From assembly GCA_964016885.1 (NCBI GenBank), contig OZ024742.1, positions 283,650,001-283,714,000 of the forward strand: 64,000 bases of DNA, in the 5' to 3' direction. A program made the position numbers and the translations under genes. Positions 3,791-52,500 of this stretch are shown in pieces (within the stretch, counting starts at the first letter, position 1; the number at the start of each line of letters is the position of its first letter). The notes under the pieces are model-generated. The model worked only from the letters and a program-made list of their open reading frames with translations. It had not been told where the DNA came from and searched no databases. The stretch comes from Eledone cirrhosa (taxonomy: Eukaryota).

Positions 3791-4145
3791 AGGCGCAGTT
3801 AAAGATGATGGTGAAAGAACTGAAAGCCAAGGGTTAGTGAGTGGGGATGCAAGCAATAGGACAAAATGAAGATGCTTGTCATGGTGCCTGCAAGGCTAAT
3901 GCCTATTTTAGCAGGGAGCATGGCCTTAAAATGCTTGTTATTGTTGTCTCAAATATCTTATAATACTGTTTTATAATTTCAGGGAATTTTACACCAAAGA
4001 TATGTAAAGAAATTAAAGAGGAATATGAAAGTCTAAAGAATGGCATTATCATGAAGATATGTGACTTTAATTTCTATAACCTTGAAGTAATTTATGAAAT
4101 CATAAAGAAAAGATTTACATTTATATTTAATGAACAACAGACAAC

Positions 4146-6368
4146 ATGGCAGAGATTTTATGTAAGAGTCAGATTCATGATGAAATAACATCTGATAATA
4201 CAGGCTTATCTCATGAGACAAAATCTGATAACACAGGTTTATCTCATGAAACAAAATCTGATAATACAGGCTTATCTCATGAAACAAAATCTGATAATAC
4301 AGGTTTATCTCATGAGACAAAATCTGATAATACAAGCTTATCTCATGAGACAAAATCTGATGATACAGGTTTATCTCATGAGAAAAAATCTGATAAAGAT
4401 TTATCTCTGGAGACACGGTTAGATATAAGAAAGAAATTCTACACGTGTGACATATGTCTACTAATATTCTCTGATATTGGAAGTCTGACCAATCACAAAT
4501 ATATCCACTCAGATAAAAAACCATACCTATGTAATGTTTGTGGTAAATCGTTCTCTGAGAGTTCAAAGCTAAATCGACATAAATGTACACACACAGGTGG
4601 GAAACCATACCACTGTGATATCTGTGGTAAAAGATTTTCACAGAAAACTAATTTAACACGTCACAAACATGTACACACAGAAGAAAAACCATGCCAGTGT
4701 GATGTCTGTGGTAAAACTTTTACAACAGTCGGAAATTTAACATCTCATAGATGTATTAATTCAGAGGAGAAATCCCATGAATGTGATATTTGTGGTAAGA
4801 CATTTTCCAAAAGTAAAATATTAACTATCCATAAACGTATTCACATGGATGAGAAACCATTCCACTGTGATGTATGTGGTAAAACATTCTCTCAAAGTGG
4901 ATATTTAACTTATCATAAACTTATTCACACAGGAGAGAAACCATACCGCTGTGATATCTGTAATAAAACATTTTCTCGGAATGATTATTTGAAACGTCAT
5001 GTACGTGTTCATACTGGGGAAAAGCCATACGAATGTGACATCTGTGGTAAAACATTCTCTGGAAGTGGAAATTTAACTTGTCATAAACGTATCCATACAG
5101 GCAGTAAACCATATCACTGTGATATTTGTGATAAATCATTTTCAACAACTGGAAGTTTAACTTCTCATAAACGCGTTCATTCAGGTGAGAAACCATACCA
5201 GTGTGATATCTGTTATAAGGCATTCTCTCAAAATGGACAGTTAACTAATCACCGGACTGTTCACACAGGTGAGAAACCATACCACTGTGATGTCTGTGGT
5301 AAAAGATTTTCTATAAGTGGAGATCTAACTCGCCATAAACGTATCCACACTGGTGATAAGCCTTATCAGTGTGATATCTGTCGTAAAAGGTTCTCTGGAA
5401 TTGAAAATTTAACTACTCATAAACGTATTCACATAGGTAAGAAACTGCACCAGTGTGATATTTGTAGTAAAATATTTGCTCGGAGGAGATATTTAGTTAT
5501 TCACAAGCGTATTCATACAGGTGAGAAACCATACCACTGTGCTCTCTGCGGTAAGACATTCTCCCGAAAGGAGTATTTAACATTTCACAAATGTATTCAC
5601 ACAGGGGAAAAATCATATCAATTTGATATCTATGGTGAGACATTCACAAAAAATTCTGAGTTAAATTATCACAAACATGTTACCACAGGGGAGAAATCAT
5701 ACCAGTGTAATATTTGTGGTAAAGCATTCACACATAATTTAGTGTTAACTATTCATAAACGTACTCACACTGGTGAGAAACCATACCAATGTGATATATG
5801 TGGTAAAACATTCGCGATAAGTGGAAATTTATCTTCTCATAAACATAGCCATCTGGATAAGAAACCTTATCAATGTGATGTTTGTCGTAAAACATTTTCT
5901 GAAAGTGGTGACTTAACTAATCATCAAAGTGTTCACACAGGTGAGAAACCATACCACTGTGATGTTTGTGGTGAAACATTCTCTCAAAGGGGTGATTTAA
6001 ATTTACATAAACATATTCACACTGGTGAAAAACCTTACAATTGTGATACCTCTGATAAAGACATTGCTGTAACTGAACATTTTTTAACTGCTGAGAAACA
6101 TATTTATACAGGTGAACAACTACATCAATGTAATACCTGCGGTAAAGTATTTGCACAAAAGAGAAATTTAATTAGGCACAAACACATTCACACAGGTGGT
6201 AAACTGTACCAGTGTGATACATGTGGTAAGAAATTCTCCCGAAATGAGTATTTAACACTTCACAAACGGATTCACACAGGAGAAAAACCATATCAATGTG
6301 AGATCTGTGGTAAAGCATTCTCGGTAAAGAATAGTTTAACCTGTCATAAACGAGTCCACATGGTATAG
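4146..6368 (+). CDS. Multi-C2H2 zinc-finger protein (740 aa; 23 finger units, about 20 canonical), single coding exon
   Basis: Tandem CxxC-x12-HxxxH with TGEKPY linkers. Units 4, 15 and 20 are degenerate. An upstream acceptor (tttcag|g at 3982/3983) suggests non-coding upstream exon(s). No KRAB/ZAD/BTB domain is recognisable. Confidence 0.95.
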   Translation: MAEILCKSQIHDEITSDNTGLSHETKSDNTGLSHETKSDNTGLSHETKSDNTGLSHETKSDNTSLSHETKSDDTGLSHEKKSDKDLSLETRLDIRKKFYTCDICLLIFSDIGSLTNHKYIHSDKKPYLCNVCGKSFSESSKLNRHKCTHTGGKPYHCDICGKRFSQKTNLTRHKHVHTEEKPCQCDVCGKTFTTVGNLTSHRCINSEEKSHECDICGKTFSKSKILTIHKRIHMDEKPFHCDVCGKTFSQSGYLTYHKLIHTGEKPYRCDICNKTFSRNDYLKRHVRVHTGEKPYECDICGKTFSGSGNLTCHKRIHTGSKPYHCDICDKSFSTTGSLTSHKRVHSGEKPYQCDICYKAFSQNGQLTNHRTVHTGEKPYHCDVCGKRFSISGDLTRHKRIHTGDKPYQCDICRKRFSGIENLTTHKRIHIGKKLHQCDICSKIFARRRYLVIHKRIHTGEKPYHCALCGKTFSRKEYLTFHKCIHTGEKSYQFDIYGETFTKNSELNYHKHVTTGEKSYQCNICGKAFTHNLVLTIHKRTHTGEKPYQCDICGKTFAISGNLSSHKHSHLDKKPYQCDVCRKTFSESGDLTNHQSVHTGEKPYHCDVCGETFSQRGDLNLHKHIHTGEKPYNCDTSDKDIAVTEHFLTAEKHIYTGEQLHQCNTCGKVFAQKRNLIRHKHIHTGGKLYQCDTCGKKFSRNEYLTLHKRIHTGEKPYQCEICGKAFSVKNSLTCHKRVHMV
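4191..4418 (+). repeat. Coding 33-bp minisatellite (11-aa SDNTGLSHETK x6 plus 1 degenerate unit)
   Basis: Repeats of tctgataatacagg(c/t)ttatctcatga(g/a)acaaaa, in frame at the ZNF N-terminus. Confidence 0.95.
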
Positions 6369-10569: not shown

Positions 10570-10870
10570 ACAGTCAGTGGCTCTTTGGCTCTCTTACTCA
10601 TTATGGACGCCGTGGTAAATGTGAGCCTCAATGCATCCGTTGCCGAACGGAATAAAAACCGAAAAATACGGGGAACTACCAAACAATTATTTTTTCCAGC
10701 CTGTGGTGTTCGAGACGTTTAGTGGGTTGGGCCGCTGACAGCGAAGTTCTTGTCATCGTTGGCGGCTCGCCTTACTGAGGTGTTAGGTGATGCCCGTGAA
10801 GGTGCCTGGCTGTTTCGGTGCCCTAGCCTCGCCATTACCTGTGGTAATGCTGCAGGCTTGCCTAAAAAAT
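10570..10870 (+). mobile_element. CRE-like non-LTR retrotransposon C-terminal fragment
   Basis: Frameshifted KYGELPNNYFFQPVVFETF.GLGP.TAKFLSSLAARL.EV.GDAREGAWLF...SLAI..GNAA. Confidence 0.7.
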
Positions 10871-11484: not shown

Positions 11485-12128
11485 GTATGTTATTTTGTGA
11501 ACGTTTCCATGTAAAAATTCCTGCAGGAAATATCGTTCTCATTTTTAATTTAACGTGTATTGCATTCTTTACAGTGATGAATTTGTGGCCTTCATTCGTT
11601 TATTGTTAATATTGAAACCACCATCATTCAAAACTTCTTTGATGCCGGTTATCCTATTGGGACCAGTGTCAGTTCATAAACAAATAGACGCCTGTAATTT
11701 CTTTCGTTTAGTAACTCAACTATCCCGAAAGTATCACCGATGATCCTTCGTTTTAGGTAGAAGCAATGTAAACACCAACTCCGACATTTTCCTGACCGAA
11801 ATTGCGCATTTCATTTTAAACCTTTTTTTTTTTTTTTTTTTTTTTACTAATGAGTCAAATTGATCCATCGTGCAGAAGTAATTTGTACACTATTGATTTG
11901 TATATGTGAATTACGAATGTTATATTTATAAAAAAGAAGGAAATGTTACGACATGCATGACGGAAAGGAAATATCAGAACATGCATGAATACCAAATCTC
12001 TTTTCCACGTATTTGCACGATAAGTTTGACGTTTTACTACAATGAAATATATAGGTAAATTTAAATTTACCAATATATATATATATATAAGAGAGTGAAA
12101 AAAACTAATTAACGTTTTTAGAGTCACG

Positions 12129-12195
<67 letters not shown>

Positions 12196-12239
12196 CGTGA
12201 CTCTAAAAACGTTAATTGGTTTTTTTTTCCCTCTCTTTG

Positions 12240-12304
<65 letters not shown>

Positions 12305-15300
12305 AACAAATAAGACCCCGACGGCTGAGCTCAAGCCGTTTCGACGGCTAATTCAGAATTAGCCGTCGAAACGGCTTGAGCTCAGCCGTCGGGGTCTTAT
12401 TTGTTCCTATTACCCACTCTACTACCTTAAGTATTGAGTACTTTGGTGCGTTATGGTCCACCTGGTTCCTTACCACATTTCCTTCGTTATATATATGTAT
12501 ATATAATTGTTTCTACTTTTAGCACAAGGCCAGCAATTACCTCAGTGCATTACTGGTACTTTATTTTATCGAACCCGTAAAATTAGTAGGAACGAGGTGT
12601 CAAAATATGTTTATTCACGTGTGACGCGCGTTTCGCGATCGATCAGCTCAAGGCATAATCACTATCAATCGTCCCCGACTCTGAAATCAATAGTTCATCA
12701 GACTTGTGGTTTCCTGAAATTTAAGAAAACATCGAGTGCTCAAACTGGTGAACCAATAGTAACGTAAAATTACACACCAATAAACTATATATATATATAT
12801 ATGTGTGTGTCTGATGGTAGCTAAGATGCTTCCATAGGCGGTATGCCGGTTGAGCACTCAATGCTCTTACAGAGCAGAGTATGATATAATATAAAACGAA
12901 AAATCAGTGATGCATCTGAACTCAATTTATTGTGTGTTACAATTGTTTCGCTGGCGGACAGCACGAGACACGGTCATTGTGTGGATCTGTCTGATTCTGG
13001 ACCCACAGGTTCGACAGACACGTCTAATGATTTCGGAGCAAATTCTTTCACACATACACACACAATCACATAGATAACGACAGTCGTACGCACAGACTCC
13101 AACTATACACACACATTTAAGGGGAACATATAAACCTATAAACATACGCATACACAGATGCATGCCTATATACATCAACACACACACAGGTGCACACACA
13201 TGCATACGCTTATATGTACCCATATACTCAAACGCGTACAGACATATACATAGACGCCCCCTTTTCTTTTTCCCCCATGCACACACACACACACATACCC
13301 ACACGTATCCATATATACAGGCACAGATACACACTTGCTCGCAAACACACGTATATATATATATATATATATACACACACAAACAAGCCCTTTCCCTACA
13401 GTGGGTGCTTGTACACACACACACACTGGCTCATATACACTCTTACAAATATGCGCATATTCACGTACACGCCCATGCACGCATAAAAAGATATATATAT
13501 ATGTATACACACACAAATAGGATATACATGTGTGTATATCCTATTTGTGTATATATATATATGTATCTTTATGCGTGCGTGGGTGTGTATGTGAATATGC
13601 GCATATTTGTAAGAGTGTATATGAGCCAGTGGGTGTGTGTACAAGCACCCACTGTAGGGAAAGGGCTTGTTTGTGTGTATATGTGTGTTTGCGAGTGAGT
13701 GTGTATCTGTGCATGTATATATGGATACGTGTGTGGGTGTGCATGGGGGAAAAAGAAAGGGGTGTGTCTATGTATATGTCTGTACGCGTTTGTGTGTACG
13801 GGTATATATACGCATATGCATGTGTGTGTGTTGATGTATATAGGCATGTATCTGTGTATGCGTATGTTTATAGGTTTATATGTTCCCCTTAAATGTGTGT
13901 GTATAGTGGGAGTCTATGCGTACGACTGTCGTTATCTATGTGATTGTGTGTGTGTGAGTGCGCGCATGTGTGGGTGCGCGCGTGGACGTTTGAACTACCA
14001 AACCCAGCAGTAATTCATTGAAGTGTGGCAGACACGGGACAGCTGATGGTCAGCCGAATAATACCTGTTGGTTAGAATTATGACGGCGTAGACAACCAGT
14101 GGCCAATAACAGGACGCGCGAAGAGGATGAAGTTTTTGACGGTAATACCCCAGTGAAAGAATTTGCTCCGAAATCATTAGACGTGTCCGTCGAACCTGCG
14201 GGTCCAGAATCAGACAGATCCACACAATGATCGTGTCTCGAGCTGTCCGCCAGCGAAACAATTGTAGCACAATAAATTGAGTTCAGATGCATCACTGATT
14301 TTTAGTTTTATATATATATATTTTATATTATATATTTGCATTCATACACAGAACAAAATTGCTTAAATAGGAAGGTTCTACGGGCGAGGAATATAAGGTC
14401 ATATTCCATGTCGCTGATGTATACAAAAGAACAAGCAAATTATAAAGCGTTATTAAGAAGAGTCCTAGAAATAGAGGGATAAAAATTTATATCAAACTGT
14501 GAATTTGGTTCTGTTCTTAAAGGGGGTTTCTGTGAACAAGGATATAACATGTATTATTCGACAGCGAGAGATTGGTATTTTTAATAATACAGGTGTTGAT
14601 GATAATATATTTCAGCTCACTTCCCGATTGAGCACTTCTTCACCCACTTATTCCTGAGAGGATCATGGGGGTAGAGTCCTGAAACACTCCTTCCAGCGGG
14701 TCCTGTCAGAAGCAACCGTCATGTATATATAGAGTAGTTGTTGAGGATTGGAGCAACAATGGTCTTATTTATGTGTATATATGTATATATATATATATAA
14801 ACGGAAAAAATGAAACGAAATTTCATTTCCCACTCTTAGTACGGCTGTTACTTAAATATAAGTATGTACACGTACATACATATATGTATACAGACGTACA
14901 GTAGTATGTATATATATATACATACATGCACACATATATATATGTACGTATGGATTCACCGAACATTTATTATAATGCTTGGTGTGTTTGTAAACAAACA
15001 TCCCGTATTAAGCCGTAGTGTCTAGCAACCATCGTTGCTCGTCTGTATACATATATGTATGTACGTGCATACTTATATATTTATATATATATATATATAT
15101 ACACTAAGATATACTATTGTAGTTTTCTGATTTTTAAACTGAATTGAATGTGAGGGTACATTGCTTAGAGGGTTTGTTTATCAGACTGGTTGCTTTATTG
15201 TCTTTAAGCAAGGCACTTCATTTCCCATTGCTCTAGTTCATTCAACTGATAATGAGTACTAGCAGTAGCTTCAAGGGAGAATCTTGTATTTCCAGTTGTT

Positions 15301-27300: not shown

Positions 27301-29115
27301 ATTGTTTGTTCTCCTAATAGAATGCCAATGAAGTACTCTCAGCATTTTCTAGCTACAAGCTGGATGATATGAAATCTCCACGCAAGAAACTTAACCGCTC
27401 ATATCTTAAGGAAACCCAGACATATTTTGCCAAATACTTAACCAGTGAAAAGGTAAGATGATTTCTTACTTAGACCCACAATGCACACATACATATGTAT
27501 CACCATCATCATCATCATCATCATCTTATGTTTCTTTTCTATGCTAGCATGAGCTGGTGAGGTTCTACAAAATTTTGCTACTTTTCTCATCTGTAAATTG
27601 AATTTTTTATTACTTTTGACCATTTTCAATATTATAAAATGTCAAGTATTTCTAAAAATGCTCACTCTGGCCAACAAAAACATGTTTTGCACTATTTAGA
27701 ACACTTAATTTTGAAATTTTCTTATTGGTGGAAAATGGCATTTTCCCTCAATCTAGTCTTTGTAATACTGGACATACTGTTACCCAAGATTAAAAAAAAA
27801 CATTATCTCAAAACAGGTGTTCAGGTAGAGAGAATACCTTGGTATCTGGCAGCGGCATCATTAGGGATGGATGTACATATTGGTTTTTACCTGACTCTCG
27901 TTTCTGGCTCTGGAACATTTTTCAGCCTTATCCTAGAAACTGCTTCTGCTGGCAGGCTAAACTTAGTGTGACTGGATGCTTGGAGTTAGATAGACACCAC
28001 CAAACATTTTTAAGGCCCACTGAAATTCTGTGATGGATACAGAGTCAGTGTGGAAACTTGATTGATTGATTTTGGTCAATTTTCAGGCAGATTATAAAAT
28101 GCAATATTTTTGCAATGATTTAACAGAAAATATTTTAAAACAGGTTTGTTAATTCAAATATTTATAGTATCTTTACTAGTTTGACAGATCTTTGTTAAAA
28201 TTTTCATTATTGGATTAGAAACTTTTAATTTTTAATATGATGCAGTCATAGTGCTGTTTTATACTTATCAATAATGTTTTGATAATGAAGTTTCATGTGG
28301 TACAAGACATTAAGAGTCAATGCTCACTTTCACCCAATAAAACATGCTGATAAAAATTATTAATCTATTCAACCCATACCAGATGTATTGTGTGTGTGTG
28401 AGGATATGACCAAAATAAGCATATATCTTTCCTTCATATTGCAGTTACTTGACCTCCAACTATCAGACAGTAATTTCCGGAGATATGTACTGGCACAGTT
28501 CCTGATCCTTATCCAATACCTCAATGCTCCTGTCAAGTTTAAAAAGTAAGTCAGTTGCTGAAACAGCACAGAGAGAGATAGACTTATCCATTTAACATTT
28601 ACATTACTCTATATATACTATTGTATTTTCACAGGAAACACTTTATTTCACATAATTATCTCACATAATATCGAATCTATGAGATTTTGATATTATTTAT
28701 TTTGAGAACTTAAATACAAGCAGCCACTTATGGCTGGTTTGAACAGAAAGAGGTGAGAGAATTCTATCAGGATACGGCACTGTATATATGTATATATACA
28801 GTGAAGGCGCATGGCTTAGTGGTTAGAGCATTGGGCTTGCAATCGAAAGGTTGTGAGTTCAATTCTCGGACCGGGTGATGTGTTTTTTCCTTGAGCAAGA
28901 CACTTTATTTCACATTGCTCCAGTTTTCTCAGCTGTAGAAATGAGATGATAGGACTGGGGTCCCTATCATTCGACTGCAAAGTGGTCGTGGAGGTGCCAC
29001 GGTAAAAAAGCACCCAGCCCACACTGTAAAGTGGACGTGTAGGCGCCACAACAGGACAACCCGTCTAATCCATGCTAGCGTGGAAGAAAGGATGTAAAAC
29101 GGTCATGATGATATG

Positions 29116-29146
<31 letters not shown>

Positions 29147-32100
29147 ATATATGTATATATATATATCATCATCATTTCATTTTACGTCCGCTTTTCCCTG
29201 CTTGCAAGGGTGGGACGGGAACTGATTCTGACTTGATTTCTACAGCTGGATGCCCTTCCTCACACCAGCCTCATTTACTGCGAGTGCTGGGTGCTTTTTT
29301 TCTGTGGCACCTACACGGCCACTTTACATTGGAATGATAGGGACCCCAGTCCCTATCATCTCATTTCTACAGCTGAGTGAATTGGAGCAATGTGAAATAA
29401 AGTGTCTTGCTCAAGGAAACAACACATCACCCGGTCTGAGAATTGAACTCACAACCTTTCGATTGCAAGGCCAATGCTCTAACCACTAAGCCATATGTAT
29501 ATATATTATATATGTATATTATATATATGTATATTATATATATGTATATTATATATGTATATATATGTATATATATATATTATATATATATATATATATA
29601 AAACAAAGGAATTGTGGTAAGGAACCAGTTGGACCATAACGCACCAGATTACTCAATACTTAGGGTAGTAGAGTGGGAAATAGGAAAAAGTATGACCCCG
29701 ACGGCAGAGGTCAAGCCGTTTCGACGGCTATTTCTGTCCAGAAATAGCTGTCGAAATGGCTTGAGCTCTGCCGTCGGGGTCATACTTTTTCCTATATATA
29801 TATATATACTAGCAGAAGTACCCGGCGTTGCCCGGGTGTAAGTCGACCTTTGGTCTGTTAGAATGTGTGAAAGTTACTTCCCGCGCATCACAGGTTCAAA
29901 ACTTCGAACTTCAATAGAAAAAAATAGGTTAGTAGACACAGGTGTGTAATTTATTAATTGTAGTTACACAGTGTATCGTTGAAATTGTTCTCTGCACGAC
30001 TGACGGAAGTCAAAATCCCTTGATATTGAATGTTCAGTTAATTTAAAGCAGGGTGAAAATGTCGATTACTTTCAGGGTTTTTTTTTTTTACAATTTTTGC
30101 GCTCACATGTGCAGAAGAAGAATTAAAAGGGCCTTTATCTTAACCGCGGCATAATGGCGAGTCTTTTGTGAGTTTTCAAGAATATAGGACGTTCCTGTAA
30201 AAAGTTTTCCCATGTGTAACTTTGCCTTGTTTTTTTGCGCAAAGTCGAGCCCCGCTTCAGTTTTATTGATTTTTTACATCAATGCGTGATCGCTGAAGTA
30301 GATTTGAGTAGCTAAAAACCTGTCCCGGTAAATTTGCTATAGGTGAAAAAAAGTTGATCAAAATTGTATCTAGGGTCATTGCCCTTTGCCACAGCCTCAA
30401 GCCTCGTCTGACGGGATGTTGGTGATTCCTCCGTCAGCGCTTGTTGGCGACGAAGGCGAACATCAGCAAGCCTTGTCGTACGTGATGTTGGTGACTCAAC
30501 CAGCCGGGAAAGACGTCTATCAGCGAGTCGAGATTCGCGCTCAGCAGGTGTTTCCTAGAGAAAATTAATTAATTCTACTGGTTAGCTAAGCCAATGGCAG
30601 TGTCAATAGTAAATGAGAAAAGTCTAACATGAACAAAAGGGAATCAAGGTAAGACAATAAATTTAATATAACTACGATTAGAATGTTGTAGTTGCTTAAA
30701 AGTGGTGACAGTTAGGATAAACGCAGTACTTGCTAACATTAAGGGAGAATATTGCATAAAGGATTAATCAATTGTGAATGAACTCATACCTGAGAACGCC
30801 TAATTCGTTGTCTCAAAGCAATAGCTGTACCTTTTTTGGAGGTAAGTCTTGAACGTTTCCGTGTGGGCATAACGACGTGTAACGAAGCTGTTAGGTTAGA
30901 GAGAGGTGATTAAATACAGAGAGAGATGACACCAGATTCGTTAGCATGGTTACTGGTGAATGGGAAGGTTTGGAAATATGATTACAATAACTTACCGAAT
31001 TTTCCCGTCTATAAATTGTACTTAAAATAATTAAATTTAATCAAAAAACAGCTCTGCGCTTTATACTCCGGTGAGCCTTATGTATAAATAATAAAATGGT
31101 AATCAATCACGGCTCTAACAGAAGTAATAGATCTAGACTAAAAGTAAAGAAGATAGCATTTTCTGGTTGGCCTTACACGCCGTTGCGCGGACCTGATTTT
31201 AAATGATACGCCTTATATCCTGGTGAGCCTTATAGAGCGGAAAATATCTATTGGAAAAGAATACGAATTCATGACCAAGGTGTGACAAAATAGGCGTCTA
31301 TACAGCGCCTGAAACAAACTTGTCCAAAACCCTAGGATTTTTCTCGTTAAGTATCCACCCAAAAGGAACCGTTTTTTAGTTACAAAAAATAACCAAAGTG
31401 TATAGTAGCTATATTTCTGACATATCATGCCAAAAAGAACAATATATTCAAAAAATGTTCTAAAGTACATTCAATCTCTCTTTTTGACCGATATCTTAAT
31501 AAGCAAGTTATCGATTTTTTATTGGCTGTCAGTGTCTATCTGCATGCAGGTGTGCACGTGTGCGCAATTAATTGCAAATACGCTCATAACATTTAGTCGT
31601 AAGCAGAACAAAAAATGCCATTAGAGGTGGGCTAATAATGAAGACACAAACCCTGGTGAACTTGCGTTTAAACACCCGAAAAGTTACTCACTTCCTGTGC
31701 AAAAGACTGTATTATAAATTAAGTAATTTTTTAGAATCTTTTTAAAAAGGGAAAACATTGGTACAACGTAAATTTTTTTACTTGTATTGTATGTGTACAA
31801 CACAACTTGGTCAACGTATTATTTAGTAATTTTTTTTTCAAAAAGCATGATTATTTAAGACTGTTTGAAAATTTACTCACAGCTTTTAGGTTCACAAAAG
31901 ACACCATTAAATTTGGTTCCCTTTTCAGATAGGGATAATACTGTATTTCCACTTGAATAAGGTGGAATATGAAAAGATAAACTCTTTAATGGTCGGTCGT
32001 TTACTGAGACAGCTGGGAAGACATGCAGCTGGCCGTCCAATCAATAACGCACGTCCTTATATGGGCATATGAAATTTATTTTTATTGCGCCAGATGTAAA

Positions 32101-32615: not shown

Positions 32616-35600
32616 CGTATATATATATATATATATTATATGTATATATATATATATATATATTATATGTATATATATTCATTTCATTCATTCATTCATT
32701 TCATTTTACGTCCGCTTTTCCCTGCTTGCAAGGGTGGGACAGGAACTGATTCTGGCTTGATTTCTACAGCTGGATGCCCTTCCTAACACCAACCTCATTT
32801 ACAGTGAGTGATGGGGGCTTTTTTGCCGTGGCACCTCCACGACCACTTTGCAGTGGAATGATACAGACCCCAGTCCCTATCATCTCATTTCTACAGCTGT
32901 ATATATATTATATATAGACAATATGCCCCCACACCCCCCACCGCAAGGTGGTCGTGGAGGTGCCACGGCAAAAAAGCACCCAGCCCACACTGTAAAGTGG
33001 ACGTGTAGGCGCCACGAAAAAGCACCCAGCACTCACTGTAAATGAGGTTGGTGTTAGGAAGGGCATCCAGCTGTAGAAATCAAGCCAAATCAGTTCCTGT
33101 ATAAGCAAGGCATGGTCAGCCGACCAGACACTGCCCACAACAGGACAACCCGTCTAACCCATGCTAGCGTGGAAGAACGGACGTAAAACGGTGATGATGA
33201 TGATGATGATGATTATATATATATATTATATGTATATATATTACTAGCATTAAAGCCCGGCGTTGCTCGGGGTCATTAAGTTACCAAAGTTAGGTTGCAC
33301 CACCCATTTTATGGCATCACTTTTTTGTCTGCCAGGCACTGGGTGAATGAATTGCAGACCTGGAAGCAGGAGCTGCGCCAGCAGTGACAATTGTAGTTTC
33401 ACCTATGGATATTATCTCTGTGCAAAAAAAGTGTTGAAATTTATTGTTTCACAGTACTTGCTCAACACGCGCGTAGACGATGCCAGCCGAACAACAGAGC
33501 TGCGATGGAGTTGTTCTGCATGGTTGTCTGTGTGTTTTCTAAATTTAAGACAGTAGGGAGGGTTGTGATATGAGGGAGAGTTAGCTGTTGTTTCTAGCAG
33601 GTTTAGTGATCTCATGGAGGATATGTGTTTTCTAAATTTAAGACAGTAGGGAGTGGTGTGATATGGGGGAGAGTTAGCTGCTGTTTCTAGCAGGTTTAGT
33701 GACCTCATAGAAGATATGTTTTCTAAATTTAAGACAGTAGGGAGGGGTGTGGTATGGGGGAGAGTTAGCTGCTGTTTCTAGCAGATTTAGTAACTTCATA
33801 GAGGATATGTGTTTTCTAAATTTAAGACAGTAGGGAGTGGTGTGATATGGGGGAGAGTTAGCTGCTGTTTCTAGCAGGTTTAGTGACCTCATAGAGGATA
33901 TTATTGTTTATCATTATCTATAAAAGGCAGATTGTTGTTGTTGTTGAAGTGAGTGTGTGTTTGTATGCGTTTGGAAAAGAGGTTTTAAAAAAGATTTATC
34001 GCTTGTTGTTGAATAAATGTATCTGTTGCTTTTGAATAATTGTCGTTTCGTATGAAATGTAATAATTGTTTCTACTTTTTTGGCACAAGGCCAGCAATTA
34101 CCCAGTACATTACTGGTTCTTTATGTAATAATAAACGTTCTCTATCTCTCTCCCTCTCACCTCTCTCTCTCTTCGGCAATCACGCACGTTGTCAGATGAT
34201 ATGAGAGAGTAAAACGGACAGTATCACCATCAAGCTTGGAAAGAGAAAGTAGCAGAAAGTATGAAGTTGTATAGATTTTGAATGGTAGTGGAAAGAGTTT
34301 AGCAGTTTAAATGACAGAGGAAAATCGTAAAATATTGAGTTTTATCTATTTTTTGCGTAATTGTGGGTGAAATTGAAAAAATTAGATGTGCCAAGACGCA
34401 ATCGATGCTATGTCGAATACTGAATTGTAAATTTCAATTGAAGAAATTCTATATCGTAAATTTCTATAAGAAAGGAGCATGACCACACACTGAGCTTTAT
34501 AGATTATGATATATATATATATATATTATATGTATATATATTATATATATATATATATATTATATATATATATATATTATATGTATATATATTATATATA
34601 TATTATATGTATATATATTATATATATATATATATTATATATATATATATATTATATGTATATATATTCATCATCATCATCATCAGGTTTAGCGTCCGTG
34701 TTCCACGCTTGCATGGGTTTGGACGGGGGTTTTCTCCACTTGAGGCAAGAGTGGTTGTCTTGCTCGCATAGGACTGTCTGGCGGGTTTTCTACAGTTGGA
34801 TGCCCTTCCTAACACCAACCACATTTACAGTGTGGGGCTGGGAGGTTTTTACCGTGTTGCCTACACGGCCACATTACAGCGTGGACTGTCTGGCGGGTTT
34901 TCTACAGCTGGATGCCCTTCCTAACATCAACCACATTTACAGTGTGGGGCTGGGAGGTTTTTACCGTGTTGCCTACACGGCCACATTTACAGCGTGGACT
35001 GTGTGTTTTTTGTCGTGACACCTACACGATCTCATTTGTTTCGGCCTGGATGTTGTGGGACCAACATAACTTTACATTGAAAGGGGCGGTGTGGGTGGGG
35101 TGGAGATGGTGGGACGGGGGTGTGTTTTGATAGAGATGCCTACTGACTGTAGTAGGTTTTTACTTTGTATTTAGGTAAGGCGGGTCTTCTCTATTACTGA
35201 GTACCGCCAAAGGTCTCGGTCCAGTGACATTGTCTTGGAGAGGTGTAAGCGTGTGAGGTCGGAATTTATCAGCTCGTCCCATGTTTTTCTGGGTCTGCCT
35301 ACTCCGTGGCTACCGTCTATCTTTATTGCCCTGCACTTTGTTATACAGCTGTCGTCTTTCATGCGCATCACGTGACCGTACCAACGTAGCCTTCTCTCGA
35401 GTAAACAACATCTGATCCCTCTTATTTCTAATTTTTTCCTTAGTTCGTTTATGCTTTGCCGTTCACGTATATTACTATTGCACATCCAGCGGAGCATGCA
35501 AGCTTCGTTCCTCTCTAGTCTGCGTATATCCTCTGCACACAATGCCCAGGTCTCACTGCCATGCAGCATTGCTGTTCGTATGCAGGCATCGTATAACCTG

Positions 35601-37018
35601 CCTTTCATTTTTAGGGAGAGCCCTCTAGCGGCTAATAGTGGTATAAGCTCTCTGAACTTTTTCCATCCAGTTCTGACTCTAGCTACTGTACTTTCAGAGC
35701 ACCCTCCCCCACTGCTGATTTTGTCACCCAGATAACGGAAGCTGTCCACTATTTCTATAGAACCCTCTGCGCAGTTGAAGGAGCTAGTATTTTGTGGGCA
35801 CTTGCTGCTACTTATTGCACCAGAGCACCGGCCACATGTAAAATCTATGTTCTTAGTTAGCTTACCTGTGATCCCACTACATCTTTTATGCACCCATACT
35901 TTGCATTTGGGACATAAAATGGAGTTTCTACCTACGCCTTTCCTGCACACTGAGCATGGCCATTTCCCAGATGGGACCGCCGCCTTATTTTCTTTCCTAC
36001 AAACTAGAACTTTAGTCTTAGCCAGGTTAATTTTAAGGCCTTTTGATTCTAGGCCGTGCTTCCATGTTTGGAATTTCTTCTCTAGTTCGGTCATTGATTC
36101 AGCTATGAGCGTTAGATCATCTGCGTATAGGAGTTCCCATGAGCAGCCGGTCTTGAACTCCTCTGTTATAGCCTGAAGGGCAATAATAAATAGTAGGGGG
36201 CTAAGAACAGAGCCCTGATGGACACCAACTTTTACGCTAAACTCTTCACTATATTCGTTGTTAATTCTAACCTTACTGACTGTTTCTTTATACATGGCTT
36301 GTATAGCTCTCACAAGCCATTCGTCAACACCTAGTTTTCTAAGAGCCCACCAGATAATGGAATGGGGGACTCTGTCGAAGGCTTTCTCCAAGTCGACGAA
36401 AGCTAAGTATAGGGGTTTACTTTTAGCTAGGTACTTCTCCTGTAGTTGTCGTACAATGAAAAGAGCGTCTGTGGTACTTTTGCCTGACACAAACCCGAAC
36501 TGCATTTCATCTAGATCAATTCTCTCTCTGATTAGTTGCGCTATTACTTTTTCCGTGACCTTCATGACCTGGTCGATTAATTTAATGCCTCTATAGTTAC
36601 TCCTATCTAGGGCATCTCCTTTTCCCTTATAGCAGTTAACGATGATGCTGCTACGCCATTCCTTCGGAACAACCCCATTCTGTACGACTTGGTTAACTAT
36701 CCGGGTGACCATGGTGTGTCCCACCGAACCAGATGCCTTCAGCATCTCAGCAACTATTTCCGAAGGCCCAGCCGCCTTACCCGTCTTCATATCTTTGATT
36801 GCCTTACTTATTATACTACCTTCAACTAACACTGCTGCTCCCTCTATTGGATCGATCTGGGGGAGACTGTCTTTCTCCCATTTGTTCTCCTCATTTAGAA
36901 GCCTTTCGTAGTGACACTTCCAAGCTACCTTCTTATCAGCGTCGGTGATGGCAAGTATGCCATCATCGTTAAGCACACAGTTCTCCCCGACAATATCACG
37001 GTTTTCCTTGACACATAT

Positions 37019-37050
<32 letters not shown>

Positions 37051-37448
37051 ATATATATATTATATATATTATATGTATATATATTATATATATATATATA
37101 TATTATATCATTTCATTTTTCATTTCATTTTACGTCCACTTTTCCCTGCTTGCAAGGGTGGGACTGGAACTGATTCTGGCTTGATTTCTACAGCTGGATG
37201 CCCTTCCTAACACCAACCTCATTTACAGTGAGTGCTGGGTGCGTTTTTGCTGTGGCACCTACACGTCCACTTTACAGTGGAATGATATGGACCCCAGTCC
37301 CTATCATCTCATTTCTACAGCTGAGTAAACTGGAGCAATGTGAAATAAAGTGTCTTGCTCAAGGAAACAACACATCACCCGGTCTGAGAATTGAACTCAC
37401 AACCTTTCGATTGCAAGGCCAATGCTCTAACCACTGAGCCATGTGCCT

Positions 37449-37499
<51 letters not shown>

Positions 37500-38995
37500 C
37501 ATCATCATCATCATCATCAGGTTTAGCGTCCGTGTTCCACACTTGCATGGGTTTGGACGGGGGTTTTCCCACTTGAGGCAAGAGTGGTTGTCTTGCTCGC
37601 ATAGGACTGTCTGGCGGGTTTTCTACAGTTGGATGCCCTTCCTAACACCAACCACATTTACAGTGTGGGGCTGGGAGGTTTTTACCGTGTTGCCTACACG
37701 GCCACATTACAGCGTGGACTGTCTGGCGGATTTTCTACAGCTGGATGCCCTTCCTAACACCAACCACATTTACAGTGTGGGGCTGGGAGGTTTTTACCGT
37801 GTTGCCTACACGGCCACATTTACAGCGTGGACTGTGTGTTTTTTGTCGTGACACCTACACGATCTCATTTGTTTCGGCCTGGATGTTGTGGGACCAACAT
37901 AACTTTACATTGAAAGGGGCGGTGTGGGTGGGGTGGAGGTGGTGGGACGGGGGTGTGTTTTGATAGAGGTGCCTACTGACTGTAGTAGGTTTTTACTTTG
38001 TATTTAGGTAAGGCGGGTCTTCTCTATTACTGAGTACCGCCAAAGGTCTCGGTCCAGTGACATTGTCTTGGAGAGGTGTAAGCGTGTGAGGTCGGAATTT
38101 ATCAGCTCGTCCCATGTTTTTCTGGGTCTGCCTACTCCGTGGCTACCGTCTATCTTTATTGCCCTGCACTTTGTTATACAGCTGTCGTCTTTCATGCGCA
38201 TCACGTGACCGTACCAACGTAGCCTTCTCTCGAGTAAACAACATCTGATCCCTCTTATTTCTAATTTTTTCCTTAGTTCGTTTATGCTTTGCCGTTCACG
38301 TATATTACTATTGCACATCCAGCGGAGCATGCAAGCTTCGTTCCTCTCTAGTCTGCGTATATCCTCTGCACACAATGCCCAGGTCTCACTGCCATGCAGC
38401 ATTGCTGTTCGTATGCAGGCATCGTATAACCTGCCTTTCATTTTTCGGGAGAACCCTCTAGCGGCTAATAGTGGTATAAGCTCTCTGAACTTTTTCCATC
38501 CAGTTCTGACTCTAGCTACTGTACTTTCAGAGCACCCTCCCCCACTGCTGATTTTGTCACCCAGATAACGGAAGCTGTCCACTATTTCTATAGAACCCTC
38601 TGCGCAGTTGAAGGAGCTAGTATTTTGTGGGCACTTGCTGCTACTTATTGCACCAGAGCACCGGCCACATGTAAAATCTATGTTCTTAGTTAGCTTACCT
38701 GTGATCCCACTACATCTTTTATGCACCCATACTTTGCATTTGGGACATAAAATGGAGTTTCTACCTACGCCTTTCCTACACACTGAGCATGGCTTTCCCC
38801 GATGGTACCGCCGCCTTATATACATATATATATATATATACACACATATATATATATATATATGAGGTTGGTGTTAGGAAGGGCATCCAGCTGTAGAAAT
38901 CAAGCCAGAATCAGTTCCCGTCCCACCCTTGCAAGCAGGGAAATAGCGGACGTAAATGAAATGATGATGATTATATGTATATATATGTATGTATG

Positions 38996-42000: not shown

Positions 42001-45000
42001 GATCCAGCTGGATCCCAAAGCGTGACCAGCCAAGCTCATGGTTGTTATCCAACTATCTTGCTCAGGGTCTACCTCTGGGTCTCTTGCTGGTTGGTTTTGC
42101 TGGTAAAATCTGTCCAGCGATTCTTTCCTGAGACATTCTAACCACATGCCCATAGTATCGGAGCTGTGATATCTCAATCCGGAGAAGTAGCGGCTCAACC
42201 AGGAGTGACTCTCTGATCTCCGAGCTATGCCCTTTATCGAGTAACGTTACCCCAAAGACCCTTCTGAGGAACCCCATTTCTGCCGTTTGTATTTGCAATT
42301 GTATTCTTTCGGTCATTACCCAATATTCATGACCCTCAGTAAGGGTTGGCAGAAATACCAGGAAGACAGCGAGTTTGGCTTTTACACCTACCTCCCTTCT
42401 TCTGATTACTAAATGCTGAAGCTGGCGCATTACTGCATCAGCTGTTGCAATTCTTGCACTTAATTCAGCCTCCTGCCTTCCATCACTCATGATAATTAAA
42501 CTTCTCCAGCTGCTTCAGTGGAACTCCATTCACATGTTTGTAAATTTGAGCGACTTCTGTCCATCTGTCTGACACAAAATGTGATACACAAGCAGCTAGG
42601 ACCACATACAAAAAAGGCAGGCGAAAGGGGTGGACAAACGAGCTACTACCAGAGCAAAAGATAACAATATCGCGAGGAGCACTGGGAAACCTCTCTAATA
42701 ATTTTTGAAACAAGCCAGTACACTTGCAGCGTTACCTCGGGTGAAGGCGAGGCTGAGATACTGGAACAACCAAGCACCTTCACAAACTTCATCAATTACC
42801 TCTGGTAGGTGAGTCGCCAGTGAAGATAAGATCTTGCAGTCAGTAGCCCGACTCTCCCAAACATCTCGAACGCTGGAAAATGTAGTTAACCAACAGAACA
42901 CGGTATTTTAGGATTTTGTTCTGTTCAGCTGCGGATGCTGTGGCTCTCGCCCTTACTGCTGCATCCAGGATGTGGGAAGAAGCAAAAGAGTGACTAACAG
43001 TGATGTCCCAGACAAAACATCTGCCTCTTGACCAGGAGCACAGGGTAAGACCGTCAGGTCTTTTCCCATCAATTCTGGACAACCCAAACGGTTTCAAAAT
43101 TGAGGGGATGTTTGCCTGGGCCAAAGCTCTTCTCTGGTAATAGGACAGTGTGTGTATGTGCGCGCGCGTGAGTTTGTTGGCATTCTTGAATTAAAGACGT
43201 GTCTGTGTTATATATATGTGTGTGTGTGTCATATATATGTGTGTGTGTATGTGTCACCGTTTTTAAGTTAGACATGTGTGTATCCCCTTCCTTCCTTTTA
43301 CACACACATACATTCACACAAACACACACACACATTGTGGGATGGACAAGAGTCGCTCAAATTTACAAACATGTGAATGGAGTTCCACTGAAGCAGCTGG
43401 AGAAGTTTAAGTATCATGAGTGATGGAAGGCAGGAGGCTGAATTAAGCGCAAGAATTGCAACAGCTGATGCAGTAATGCGCCAGCTTCAGCATTCAGTAA
43501 TCAGAAGAAGGGAGGTAGGTGTAAAAGCCAAACTCTGCCAACCCTTACTGAGGGTCATGAATATTGGGTAATGACCGAAAGAATACAATTGCAAATACAA
43601 ACGGCAGAAATGGGGTTCCTCAGAAGGGTCTTTGGGGTAACGTTACTCGATAAAGGGCATAGCTCGGAGATCAGAGAGTTACTCCTGGTTGAGCCGCTAC
43701 TTCTCCGAATTGAGAGATCACAGCTCTGATACTATGGGCTGTGGTTAGAATGTCTCAGGAAAGAATCGCTGGACAGATTTTACAGGCAAAACCAACCAGC
43801 AAGAGACCAAGAGGTAGACCCTGAGCAAGATAGTTGGATATTTACTTTACAATTTACATATCATATCTATAAGCATATATATATTTGCATATAAAACCAA
43901 TACGCAGAATACACATGCAAGCAGAAAACCGCCCGAAGGGTGGTTTTGCTGCTAGTATATATAAAGATACAGAGCTTAGCGTTGTTTTGAAAATTAGCTT
44001 TGTTTACAAACAGCGGAAGTTCTATTTCACTATCTCGTTTATTTAGTAGATAAATTATGTAATATTCATTCATTATCTATTCAAAGTAATCCAACTTATT
44101 TTACTAATGAGATTAAAAAATATATTCTGGATGCTGTCCCGCACTCCTTTTATTATAGTTAAGATAAGTCTATCACTATAAATAATTGTGAAAATTGGTT
44201 TAAATGTCCTTAGAGATTGAAAAAAGTGGACTGAAGTGCCTGTGAGGAAACGAACCCTGTATCTCCCAAATACTGTGCGAGCACATTAACCACACAGCTT
44301 GGCACTTCTGTCCACTTTTTTCTATCTCTATGAGTATTTTACACAATTTTCTCAACTATTATTTATAGTGATAGACTGTTATTGCATTCATTTTCTGCAT
44401 TTGGGACGCTCACATTTTCAAATTTCAAAATAATTATGTTTATTATCTGTATTATTAATCCACAGGCTGAAGAGGAAGAGTATTGGGAGTGACTTAATTG
44501 CAAGTGGAGGGAAGTTGATCAAAATGGGAAGTCCTGAGTTGACCCGATTATGGAATCTATGTCCAGATAACACAGAAGCCTGCAAATCAGAGAAAAGGTA
44601 AGTCGTGTTTTATTATGAAGACGCTATAGTGAAATATTACTTACTTGCTTTACCTCATATGTGAAGAAGCTACAGTGAAGTATCACTTACTTGCTTTACC
44701 TTATATGTGAGGTATGTGGTTTGGCCATTAGGGTGTTGGACTCATAATCATAAGGTCATGGGTTAAATTTTCGAACTAGGCAGTGTGTTGTGTCCTTGAT
44801 TGAGCAAGCCACTTCATTTCACATTGCTTCACTCCGCTCAGTTGGGAAAAAATATTAGTACCAGCCGTATCAACAGGTTGATGGGATGGGATGGGGTGGT
44901 GGGTGAGTTCAGTTAACCCTCTGTAAGAGACTGAAGTCCAATCAAAGGGGAGAAGTTTTTTCATGATAGGACTAGGACTCCTTTAATTTAATGTTTTTGT

Positions 45001-48000: not shown

Positions 48001-49437
48001 ACATGACAACTTCTCTAGCGCTGGTGCCATGCAAAATGCGCCCTGTACACCATGTAAATTGGTTGGTGATAGGAAGAGCATCCAACTGTAGAAACCATTT
48101 CAAAAAAGGCTTTCAACAGACTCACAAGTTGTATCAAGGGTACATCAACCTCTCTAGTGTTGTTGCCATGATAAAACATATTCAGTACACTCTGTAAAGT
48201 GGTTGGTGATAGGAAAGATATCCAGGCATAGAAAACTTGCCAAACATAGGATCAAGAGGGACACGGTGCTGAAAAAGACCCATCCATCCTATGCAAGCAT
48301 AGAAAAGTAGAAGTAAAATGATGATGAGGATTATGGTGTGGCTTAGCTGTTTAAACACGAGAAACAAATTCAATGCATGGATAGAGTGATGTGTAGTTTG
48401 AAAAGTGCAGTGAAGCATGAAACTCTTGGCTCTTTAATCATTGGTATAGCTTTGCAGTTATAATAAATTATATTGTTACTGTCATCATCAATGTTTTCTA
48501 TGCTGGCATTGGCTGGATTGATATATATGTAAAAGATAAACAGAAATAACAACACAATCGATACAGTATATGGAAGGGATATATTAAATTAATGCTTGAT
48601 ATAGCAGGAAGATGGTCTTAACGTTTCGGACGCGAGTCCTTCATCAGAAGAAAGAATGAGAAATAAGATAGATTGAGGTGATGGGCGGGTTGGAATTGGA
48701 AAAAATGTCTTTAGATAAAAATAACAGATCCATTCATGTTGACATCTCTTGCAAAACTGTTGATGCTGGCGTTTTGTGTATGATTTATTTTTTAGAAAAG
48801 TGGATGGTCATGCTGCCAATAAAACAACATGCCCCTGTTGGTTTTCACTTCAATTTATTATAAATTTCTGGTTGGTTAGTTCAATAACTAGATGGTGGTT
48901 TATATATTGTCAAAGCTCTTTTGTCACTCATTCTGTGACTGATATTTTATTTTGTGTCTCTCCTGAGGAGGTCACAGAATCTGTGATGTAAGAGCTTTGA
49001 CAATATATAAACAACCATCCAGTTATTGAACCAACCAACTAGAAATTTATAATAAATTGAAGTGAAAACCAACAGGCATGTGTGTTTTCTTGGCAGCATG
49101 ACCCTCCCAAAGTATAACAATATCTATTTCAGCACACATTTTCAGATAAGAAATCTTATAAAACAAATTCAAAAACGAAGTATATATCTATATATACTCT
49201 TTTACTCTTTTACCTGTTCCAGCCATCCGGCTGAGGCCATGCTGGGGCACCGCCCTATATATAAGAATATGTGTTTAAAGTACCATAGTAATTGAAACAT
49301 TCAAAGATTGAGCACTGGTGGGTAGTGTAAATTTATTCTTTAAATAGAAAAGTGGCAGTGGCTTTCTAATTTCCATTTGGTCACTTCATCAAACCTCAAA
49401 CTTTGAAGTCTCACCCACTTTGCTCTGTGTGTGTAAT

Positions 49438-49504
<67 letters not shown>

Positions 49505-52500
49505 GTGGTAACACAACAGTTAGTTCACCATACCGAGAACAATTGTTTCACGTTAGCGGATCTACAGCTCAGAGCTGTAGATCCGCTAAGATGAAACAAT
49601 TGTTCTCGCTATGGTGAACTAACTGTTGTGTTACCACTTCTACCTAACTCGTCCCATGGACTGAGTGCTCTACCACTACAGATATTACCTTCCAGTGTTC
49701 TACCTCTATATATATAACCCATGCTAGCATGGAAGATGGACGTTAAACAAAGATGATGATGATATATATATAAATTAGTATATAGGGAGGTATGTGTTTA
49801 ATTATAGAGGATAGAAAACCACCAGAGTAAAGAACATAAACACATACCTTTATATGTACTTCTCTATACATACTAATTTATAAAGAGCCTGGAATCTATT
49901 CCTTGAACTCATTAAATTATAGGGGATTAACATGAATATTTAACTCGTTTTTTTTTATTTTATATATATATATATATTATATTATATATATACATACAGT
50001 CTGTTCGCTTTGTACGTGAACTTGAAATACGTGAATTCTCTTCAATGCATCTTGAAAAAGTATTATTAAATATTCACTTTACATGAATAACACGTGTGGT
50101 TTTTAATTTTTTTTTATTTATCAGAAATATTAGACTTGAATTACGCGAATTTGCTTTACGCACCACGTTCATGAACACATATTCGCATAAAAAGTGAACA
50201 CAATTTATATATAATCATTTTGTTCCAAACAGCCACCACATGAAGAAATGAAGACTGAGATTGGAGAAGAGGAAGACATAAAGGCTCCCTCTCCTGATGA
50301 TGGGGAAGAAATTAAGAACGATGGCGGTAAGTGTATGACTTCTACTGATGCCTCTTATTTACATAGTGGAAGAGATTGTAAGGTAACAGAGTGAGGGAGT
50401 ACATGACAGAGAGTGATTAAGTGGAAGCAATAAATAGAGATGTAGAGGGAGTGTTGACAGTCTGCTGGTTTGCTAGAGGAAAAGAATTAATAATTTTTAA
50501 CATTGGCTCAAGGCCAGGTATTTTGAAAAGATATTGTCAATTGTGTTGAAACTTCAATACTTGACAATTATTTATTTTATCAAACCAAGAAGGATAAAAT
50601 GTAAACTGAACAAACAGGGTTTGAACTCAGAACATAAAGGGATGTATCTCTCTAAGTAGTACACAATATTTTGTCCATCGCTCTACTGATTCTGCCAAAT
50701 GGCTTCCTTGAAATAAATCAACCATAATAATATGCCATATCCGAGAAGTGGAAGGGATAGGAGGTATGCCATGAGTAAGGGGAAATGAATGGGAGTGATG
50801 ACAAATATGTTACGCATGTATGGCAGGAGTGGTTGGGGAAGGGGTGAGAATGTATGTCACGTGTGTATGATAGGTATGGTGGTTACTGAAAATGGGATGA
50901 GATGGAGGGAGGTATGGTCTCAAAACAAGGAAACAATGAGAGAGAAGAGGCGATTTCAAATAGACTGGTGTAGGGATACCTATACATACATATACATATA
51001 TAAATATACATGTGCACATGGCTTAGTGGTTAGAGCATTGGCCTTGCAATCGAAAGGTTGTGAGTTCAATTCTCAGACCGGGTGATGTGTTGTTTCCTTG
51101 AGCAAGATACTTTATTTCACATTGCTCCAGTTTACTCAGCTGTAGAAATGAGATGATAGGGACTGGGGTCCATATCATTCCACTGCAAAGTGGTCGTGGA
51201 GGTGCCACGGCAAAAAAGCACCCAGCACTCACTGTAAATGAGGTTGGTGTTAGGAAGGGCATCCAGCTGTAGAAATCAAGCCAGAATCAGTTCCCGTCCC
51301 ACCCTTGCAAGCAGGGAAAAGTGGACGTAAAATGAAATGATGATGAATGATGATGTGCATGTGAACAAAATGATCCACTTTCCCTCAGCCTAATTGGTTA
51401 ATGTTTTCAAGAATTCCTAATATTCTTATATAATCTTGTGAACTAATAGTTAAGGTATTGGATGCATGCTCATAAGGTTGTGGGTTTGATTCTAGGACCA
51501 GGTGTATTGTATTCTTGAGCAAGCTGCTCCATTTCACATTACTTTTCATGATAGCTATGGGGCTCCTATCATTAAAACACCCAAGAAACCTTGTAAGAGA
51601 TGTTACCTCATATGAGGCCAGCTAAACCTGCATAGTTGCTAGCTGAACTAGCTGAATTCCTTCAACTAAAATGATTTCTCCCTATTAAAGTAATGCAACT
51701 TTCACAAATATTATTTATCCTTTTCCATTGGCTTAAGTGGCTAACGTTTTCAAGAATTCCTTGTTTTTATGTGATTTTTGTTTCCAAGCTGAACTCTTTC
51801 AATTGAAATTGTTTTTCTTTACTCATGAAAACAGAAATATGACTTTATTAATGGGCATGTTTTTATCACAATAAGGCACATGTCTTGATGGTTAGGGTGT
51901 TTGACTCACAATCATAAGGTCATGGGTTTGATTCATGAAACTGGTGGCCCCTATCATTAAAATACCCAAGAAACCTTATGGGAGATGCAACTTCATAGGA
52001 GGCAAGCTAAACCTACATAGATGTGAATTGTATATTTCATATTTTTATCTTCCTAAGATGCTAATATTTTCAGGAATTCTTTGTTTTTATATCATCTTTG
52101 GTTTCTAGTCATATTCTTTTATCTGAAATGATTTCTGCATGTATTTTTCAGCTGATATGCCTTCTTCCAGTTGGAAATTCAACAATGACTTTTTGCAAGG
52201 TTTGTATCTGATGTTATCTGAAAAAAACCCTATTTATTGAGCAACCTCCATGCTGTTTCCACTTGGCTTATGCATTTTAGACTCTGCTGCTTTTTCACCT
52301 GTTTTTCCCTATCTCCACATATCTCTCACCTTTGTTTGTAGCGAATAAATTACCACTCTTCTATTTCTTTGTTTCTTTCCTACCTTGCTTACTAGTCCTA
52401 AAAACTCTGCTGGGTATTTATCTAAATACCTTCTATCATAATTTGATGTAAGAATCTTTCTTAAATTACCATATTTCTAAGGACAGACACTGTCTATGAT

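Follow-up and report, generated by a model that had tools for sequence, protein, structure and literature searches.

Miniature inverted insertions of a Penelope-like element in Eledone cirrhosa, with arms ending near a predicted RNA start inside a hammerhead loop

A perfect palindrome at positions 12300-12410 of the 64,000-nucleotide stretch of Eledone cirrhosa DNA analyzed here (hereafter the window), with arms of 55 bp and a loop of 1 nt, can be assigned, from its sequence, to a Penelope-like element (PLE) bearing Hydra-clade motifs, of which it is a miniature inverted insertion. This palindrome, hereafter E1, is followed by an 80-bp tail and has (TA)n on either side, and all of these features, reported in a preliminary description of the window, are visible in the sequence. 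We favor, at somewhat better than even confidence, a reading in which two target-primed cDNAs with starts at +61 and +141 ran off the RNA 5' end at +1 and were joined head to head in (TA)n (+1 denotes the predicted RNA start, set at L031:4951). Underlying this reading are the parentage of E1, fixed outer ends on both sides, a sharply bounded inner stop zone, varied junctions, and jumps at +1 and at the cut site. The object is of a known kind, a PLE inverted pseudo-LTR plus tail: such insertions of EN+ PLEs have already been published (PMC8557442; PMC3846280; PMC2377424).

The features of E1 and of the other fold-backs in the window are collected in Table 1. The E1 junction sits 5-7 nt downstream of the predicted RNA start, and the outer end of its short arm would mark the first reverse-transcription start site. 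The direct arm of E1 is identical to the parent element at 136 of 137 positions, and in parents the 80-bp tail sequence continues into the 5' UTR and ORF.

Table 1. Features of E1, other fold-backs of the window and related multimers (window positions unless a locus is named).
Feature	Position	Strand	Basis
Left (TA)n target run	12242..12301	none	Sequence
E1 short inverted arm, element +61 back to +7	12300..12354	-	55/55 identical to parent
E1 head-to-head junction, 1-nt overlap, axis 12355	12354..12355	none	Palindrome and junction reading
E1 direct arm, element +5..+61, carrying hammerhead 3' half	12354..12410	+	Parent fold
Helix II 3' strand in E1	12360-12365	+	Parent fold
GAAA in E1	12368-12371	+	Parent fold
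Helix III in E1	12371-12389	+	Parent fold
Predicted ribozyme cut in E1	after 12390	+	Parent fold
Helix I 3' strand in E1	12391-12395	+	Parent fold
E1 80-bp PLE "tail", +62..+141	12411..12490	+	Between two inferred reverse-transcription starts
Right (TA)n target run	12491..12505	none	Sequence
E2, older-subfamily copy of family 1, tail on left, axis 29737	29600..29795	-	Sequence comparison
E3, PLE family 2 fold-back; complete minimal hammerhead from 49575, axis 49571	49500..49712	+	
E4, family 3 fold-back; complete minimal core from 48963, axis ~48955	48802..49125	+	
E5, decayed family 5 fold-back	49765..49960	+	Hammerhead of relatives read by eye
E6, long inverted pair of family 4, tail on left, axis ~13505-13530	12803..14320	-	
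Multimers with jumps from +1..+5	L159, L161, L156/157, L155		

No evidence emerged for the location in host introns suggested by the preliminary description; the sole recognized host-type ORF of at least 150 aa in the window is a zinc-finger ORF that ends 6 kb upstream, occupying 4134-6368 (+) and encoding 744 aa, among them an N-terminal repeat of 11 aa and a long C2H2 array. LINE-type reverse transcriptase frames lie at 35171-37102 (-), 38004-38873 (-) and 55943-57136 (-), one of them locally duplicated at a spacing of 2,833 bp, and a repeated element that begins with a tRNA-like head and is probably a SINE shows such heads at 28812, 29436, 37384 and 51019. An inverted repeat centered on a long (TA)n run (12076-12240) is immediately left of E1, and a further long inverted pair, its center rich in microsatellite, spans 42046-43840. 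An Rfam search of the window reported no hammerhead, and its miRNA matches were all far under their gathering scores.

The layout of E1 was said to recur at 29601-29795, and this site indeed holds a second copy of the same family (family 1). Genome-wide, a 23-mer from the family-1 tail gave 24,010 exact matches in the species' own 3.0-Gb genome (reversed control, 0), and the fold-back junction pattern, with at most 24 bases between arms, was found at 10,639 sites (control, 0), so that the hairpin is not a product of chance. A 19-mer taken from 50-68 bases upstream of the arms matched 3,621 times and the tail-to-ORF junction 349 times, and young copies are 99% identical to each other. Thirty loci picked by the likeness of their right arm to E1 comprised 26 fold-backs, three long copies and one lone arm. 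A position-ordered sample was drawn from the first 90 of 100 listed tail-match places, all on contig C1, and yielded 92 tail-anchored arms, or 91 once one duplicate orientation was dropped. An inverted partner was present for 65 of these 91 arms, and the outer end of the short arm lay at +61..+63 next to (TA)n in 58 of the 65 fold-backs. Junction bases were read from 90 junctions and 40 lone arms at 139 loci, some of them picked by junction pattern or E1 likeness.

The Penelope-like origin proposed in the preliminary description was substantiated by parents with a pseudo-LTR (pLTR), an RT-endonuclease ORF and the tail, found elsewhere in the genome. One locus (L031) preserves a whole insertion, running from (TA)n through an inverted arm, a direct pLTR, a broken RT-endonuclease ORF, a 3' UTR and a second pLTR end to (TA)n; its pLTRs are in partial tandem, and parent arrays are spaced 3,528-3,547 bp. 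Tandem arrays of the parent hold intact ORFs of 717-719 aa with YRDD and a C-terminal VIY..YIG motif. The parent thus has the single ORF with RT and C-terminal GIY-YIG endonuclease by which EN+ PLEs are recognized, and family 1 has the adjacent inverted 5'-truncated copy and the tail at one end that characterize PLEs. A direct Pfam scan of the parent ORF returned 0 families and a PDB sequence search found nothing. Among 8,000 candidates scored, 2,049 relatives of the ORF were identified, many with PF26215 and the best with PF01541; the relatives carry PF01541, PF00078 and PF26215 (GIY-YIG, RVT_1 and HTH_animal), and Atlas neighbors of the ORF bear GIY-YIG and RVT_1.

The parent ORF also displays marks of the Hydra clade, namely DKT, the CxCX5C linker, and CxxC and CxH in the endonuclease, and family-1 insertions sit in (TA)n, confirming the target site put forward earlier. 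The Hydra clade as published (PMC8557442) shares all of these together with an RW-basic motif, but the parent reads RWR for RWK, its unit is ~3.5 kb against "generally <3 kb", and its hammerhead has a U3-A8 core with a long loop II. Arrays in which four full 3.5-kb units follow one another head to tail, their intact ORFs nearly identical, were observed (L314, L315; G000:C1:91476610-91487256 and 437200354-437210966), as expected from rolling copying of circular or multimeric RNA.

The right arm of E1 had been described as the 3' half of a type I hammerhead, and this identification stands because longer parents supply the missing 5' half upstream of the arm and the two halves together take a type I hammerhead fold, with a three-way junction in both the minimum-energy and the consensus fold. 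The fold z-score was -1.8, and the consensus fold, from 25 of 47 long copies, contained a double change in 1 of 20 pairs, so that covariation is weak. A parental 5' half with the sequence CTGANGA had been anticipated; the half is present, but its core is usually U3..A8 and not CUGANGA. Read by eye, U3..A8 was found in 34 of the 47 long copies, and imperfect core pairings were C3 with A8 in nine and U3 with G8 in two. The parent pLTR would thus carry a complete predicted type I hammerhead with a U3-A8 core, a known natural variant of PLE hammerheads (PMC4209133; PMC3088659). Helix II pairs -33..-28 with +11..+16, enclosing a loop II of about -27..+10 with its midpoint near -9. A family-1 relative at L061:1717-1842 (-), 69% identical, keeps the helix pairing and the initiator-like motif, the remainder of its loop II having diverged. 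Family-1 micro-copies, as reported at the outset, lack the 5' catalytic half, and they are most likely dead on arrival, being without the upstream promoter half and the ORF-side sequence.

The parent sequence contains a TATA-like TATTTAAA at -29 and TCAGT/TTAGT with its A at +1, which, by comparison with consensus sequences, we take to be a likely TATA box and initiator. By eye, the initiator-like motif is present in 44 of 47 long copies, including the 69%-identical one, and the TATA-like motif is gone in older family-1 subfamilies. We infer from these motifs a putative Pol II start at +1, inside hammerhead loop II. The Penelope pLTR contains a start site (PMC8557442) and its promoter is TATA-less (PMC2377424); a TATA plus initiator-like pair has been noted in a rotifer pLTR (PMC3846280). 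A sigma-70 promoter scan was set aside, as the element is animal.

The inner ends of the arms fall sharply around this position. Among 156 arms, 108 get as far as +8, and 97 of these stop in -5..+8; eight of the 11 arms that pass this zone extend beyond -110. The stop rate per nt is 0.6% over +50..+9, 12.4% over +8..-5 and 0.4% over -6..-99. Many arms match to -2..-5, partly via a near-palindrome centered at +2..+5, which could itself favor joining there. The 90 junctions have 60 distinct cores, with microhomology or filler, and in 31 of the 90 the core is 8 nt long, fitting microhomology at the near-palindrome. In four public runs, read-contig depth goes up ~8-fold at +1 and drops ~16-fold past +141; these runs are contigs of unrecorded kind, possibly from the assembly's own sample and hence not independent, and therefore cannot show RNA starts.

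Extra bases at the arm ends were also recorded. L1 and template-switch chemistry lead one to expect an extra G where a cap is copied. Where an arm ended exactly at +1 and the next base was untemplated, that base was G in 12 cases and A in 1 (p=0.002 vs 50:50), and the G excess relative to filler found at other positions (10 G : 1 A vs 16 G : 10 A) was not significant (p=0.08), so that an untemplated G as a copy of the cap is only suggestive. L123 and L156 have T-runs on the 5' side of +1 that are consistent with A-tailing at run-off. In L018, L057, L082, L083, L096 and L100 the arm stops at +2 and the next cDNA base is G where T is expected, a recurring junction class that possibly represents a misread modified first nucleotide.

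Multimers occur among the 30 tail-to-ORF-junction loci: ahead of a unit ending at +1..+5 stands another that begins at +203, +232, +254 (twice) or +970, as if the enzyme had jumped after running off the RNA. Some copies make a comparable jump from the cut site (+42) to element sequence further downstream. Among the 37 arms of these loci, four insertions have between them five unit ends at +41/+42, the predicted ribozyme cut (rough Poisson p ~0.001); such ends are rare in the position-ordered sample (three by eye). Automated calls of ends at +41..+43 include substitution artefacts, so only eye-checked ends were kept and L178 was dropped.

In the mechanism that we propose, the endonuclease would nick both strands of the (TA)n target, two target-primed cDNAs would begin at the internal sites +61 and +141 and run off the element RNA at its 5' end, likely capped, at +1, and the run-off cDNAs, resembling retroviral strong-stop DNA, would be joined to each other inside the (TA)n site. 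A Pol II start inside loop II would leave only the ribozyme 3' half at the mRNA 5' end, and self-cleavage would therefore not occur there. Long and tandem copies would arise from minority events, either jumps or the use of read-through, ribozyme-cut or circular RNA. The cutting of both strands of AT-rich DNA and the start at two internal RNA sites bounding the tail have a precedent in an anole PLE in vitro (PMC11167929).

The principal alternative is that a single cDNA begun at +141 turns back on the near-palindrome +1..+10, extends along its own sequence to +61 and joins the other target end. We regard it as unlikely overall, although such self-priming, placed at the RNA start as distinct from helix II, may make a share of the symmetric copies. 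Self-priming as such had been proposed for PLE inverted junctions in rotifers in 2013 (PMC3846280). The 8-nt cores speak for the single-cDNA route, as do a few symmetric junctions at internal palindromes (L039, L052, L087) and the agreement of the two arms at subfamily-diagnostic sites: discordance between arms of one insertion at such sites was 0/38, 0/50 and 1/55, and the arms differed by 3.1%, against 10.5% for random pairing. This concordance fits snap-back equally, and twin priming then needs one and the same RNA or donor to be copied twice. Self-priming cannot, however, yield short arms with bases that the tail arm lacks, and in 15 of the 65 fold-backs the short arm exceeds the tail arm in 5' extent by 15 nt or more, the reverse being seen in about 2-3, an imbalance that is not significant after unequal opportunity is allowed for (p=0.27). 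Nor does it explain the ORF-side jumps in L161, L172 and L183, whose +61 arm includes ORF-side sequence that is missing in the tail arm and was therefore templated by RNA and is no copy of the other arm, or the untemplated filler on both arms of L255 and L069. Arm discordance as proof of two RNAs was dropped: although 9 of 26 E1-like fold-backs differed at +51, these were selected for likeness to E1, the site was discordant in only 5 of 55 in the ordered sample, its T allele is rare and the diagnostic sites are concordant.

If cDNA synthesis was instead primed twice but halted by the sequence or structure of the template, whether at helix II entry or by a bound protein, the stop zone would be a built-in block; its width of 13 nt rather than a single base and the broad stops of family 2 along the helix I 5' strand agree with this, but the untemplated G and A-tails at +1, the jumps that begin there, the tandem full-length arrays that traverse the same sequence repeatedly, and an initiator-like motif kept while other loop II sequence diverges make it quite improbable in our view. 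The preliminary description had placed the fold-back axis at the apex of helix II and had the nascent cDNA snap back on that helix in many families. The family-1 axis does lie inside loop II, but ~12 nt 3' of its midpoint; axes cluster at +1..+6 with only 1 of 65 within -16..-6, arms seldom extend as far as the 5' strand of helix II (-28..-33), the four other families have their folds at other positions, and the longer short arms and the three with ORF-side sequence add to the discrepancy, so that both the axis rule and the snap-back on helix II were abandoned, the latter as very improbable. Amplification of a whole, self-propagating palindromic unit, whether MITE or SINE-like, would suit the high copy number, the 99% identity of young copies and the TA target; the variety of junctions (60 cores among 90) excludes a single such unit, the ends are asymmetric and the sequence is continuous with the PLE ORF, leaving this idea scarcely credible. 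Among the sampled junctions no subfamily was found in which one rare junction is shared across unrelated loci, beyond cores defined by microhomology. A MITE, the contrary case raised in the preliminary description, was checked and rejected on outer ends that differ by the 80-bp tail, junctions that vary and a partner that is an RT-EN ORF.

The preliminary description had extended the layout to other sites in the window; fold-backs do exist there, but they belong to four other families with axes elsewhere, and a helix II axis is therefore not a general rule. Family 2 (49500-49712; 3,163 tail matches, joined to a PLE ORF) shares the two outer ends with family 1 but has a complete minimal hammerhead, its axis lying 4 nt upstream of the complete core. 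In 70 tail arms and 38 partners of this family, 60 of 108 ends are upstream of the core, which is kept whole, and 41 of those 60 lie within a broad zone 1-25 bases before it. The axis of family 3 (48806-49103) is ~8 nt upstream of a complete core, and this hammerhead-bearing family is likely a PLE, as is family 4 (12803-14320), with an axis ~600-700 bp upstream of a hammerhead-like 3' half. Family 5 (49769-49960) has its axis more than 100 nt downstream of the ribozyme of its relatives; the window copy E5 is without a hammerhead, and relatives, read by eye, have one more than 100 nt upstream. For families 3-5 the ORF links are less firm and were in part established by eye. Yet another repeat family contributes a complete minimal hammerhead core, its helix II short, at ~48610-48650 (-).

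The published inverted-pLTR insertions share with family 1 an inverted 5'-truncated copy head to head with a direct copy, a tail at one end, hammerhead and promoter motifs in the pLTR and a microsatellite target. They differ in that the main product here is ~190 bp without the ORF, the tail measures 80 bp against 30-40 bp, and the junction keeps to a fixed place close to a predicted start inside the ribozyme, a tie between junction and start that the available text of the published accounts does not make. PAc, a Poseidon element of the green anole, shares two internal RT starts bounding the tail, an AT-rich two-strand cut and a predicted dimer (PMC11167929). That work, the one in vitro study of a PLE, found ribozyme cleavage dispensable, saw no RNA-seq reads that end at the ribozyme cut and leaves cDNA stop sites aside, whereas the insertions described here preserve stops at +1 and, in rare cases, at the cut site. 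Non-LTR retrozymes (bioRxiv 10.64898/2026.07.22.740005) are likewise short non-coding PLE derivatives with type I hammerhead sequence, but they consist of direct tandem units that each hold a complete ribozyme; family-1 hairpins, inverted and with half a ribozyme, were not assigned to that class.

Among non-PLE systems, family-1 arms differ from L1 inversions in usually covering the same +1..+61 stretch. In L1 twin priming two primers give inverted and direct segments that are joined by microhomology and cover different parts of one RNA, and full-length 5' ends bear an extra G. Within the open literature searched, the sharp stop at a predicted start inside the ribozyme loop appears to be new, as do the records of jumps and cut-site ends and the evidence that both arms were RNA-templated.

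The formation of tandem and inverted PLE structures has been stated to be unresolved (PMC8557442), and the present data favor arms that were both templated by RNA over self-priming as published. This young family, whose junctions formed independently and number in the thousands, makes base-level predictions of an RNA start at +1 and RT starts at +61/+141, and further predictions of a minor template end at +42 and of jumps onto downstream RNA. If transcribed, more than 10,000 near-perfect hairpins on a 110-bp scale would be a large potential source of dsRNA. We tentatively suggest, at somewhat less than an even chance, that by starting in its own hammerhead loop the element disarms its mRNA, that read-through RNA is cut at +42, and that the reverse transcriptase, starting twice close to the RNA 5' end and making strong-stop-like cDNAs, must jump or use cut or circular RNA, the hairpins being failed jumps. 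If this is true, the genome records template ends and jumps as an in vivo map of the PLE replication cycle, and these hairpin scars would show how a poorly understood class of elements copies itself.
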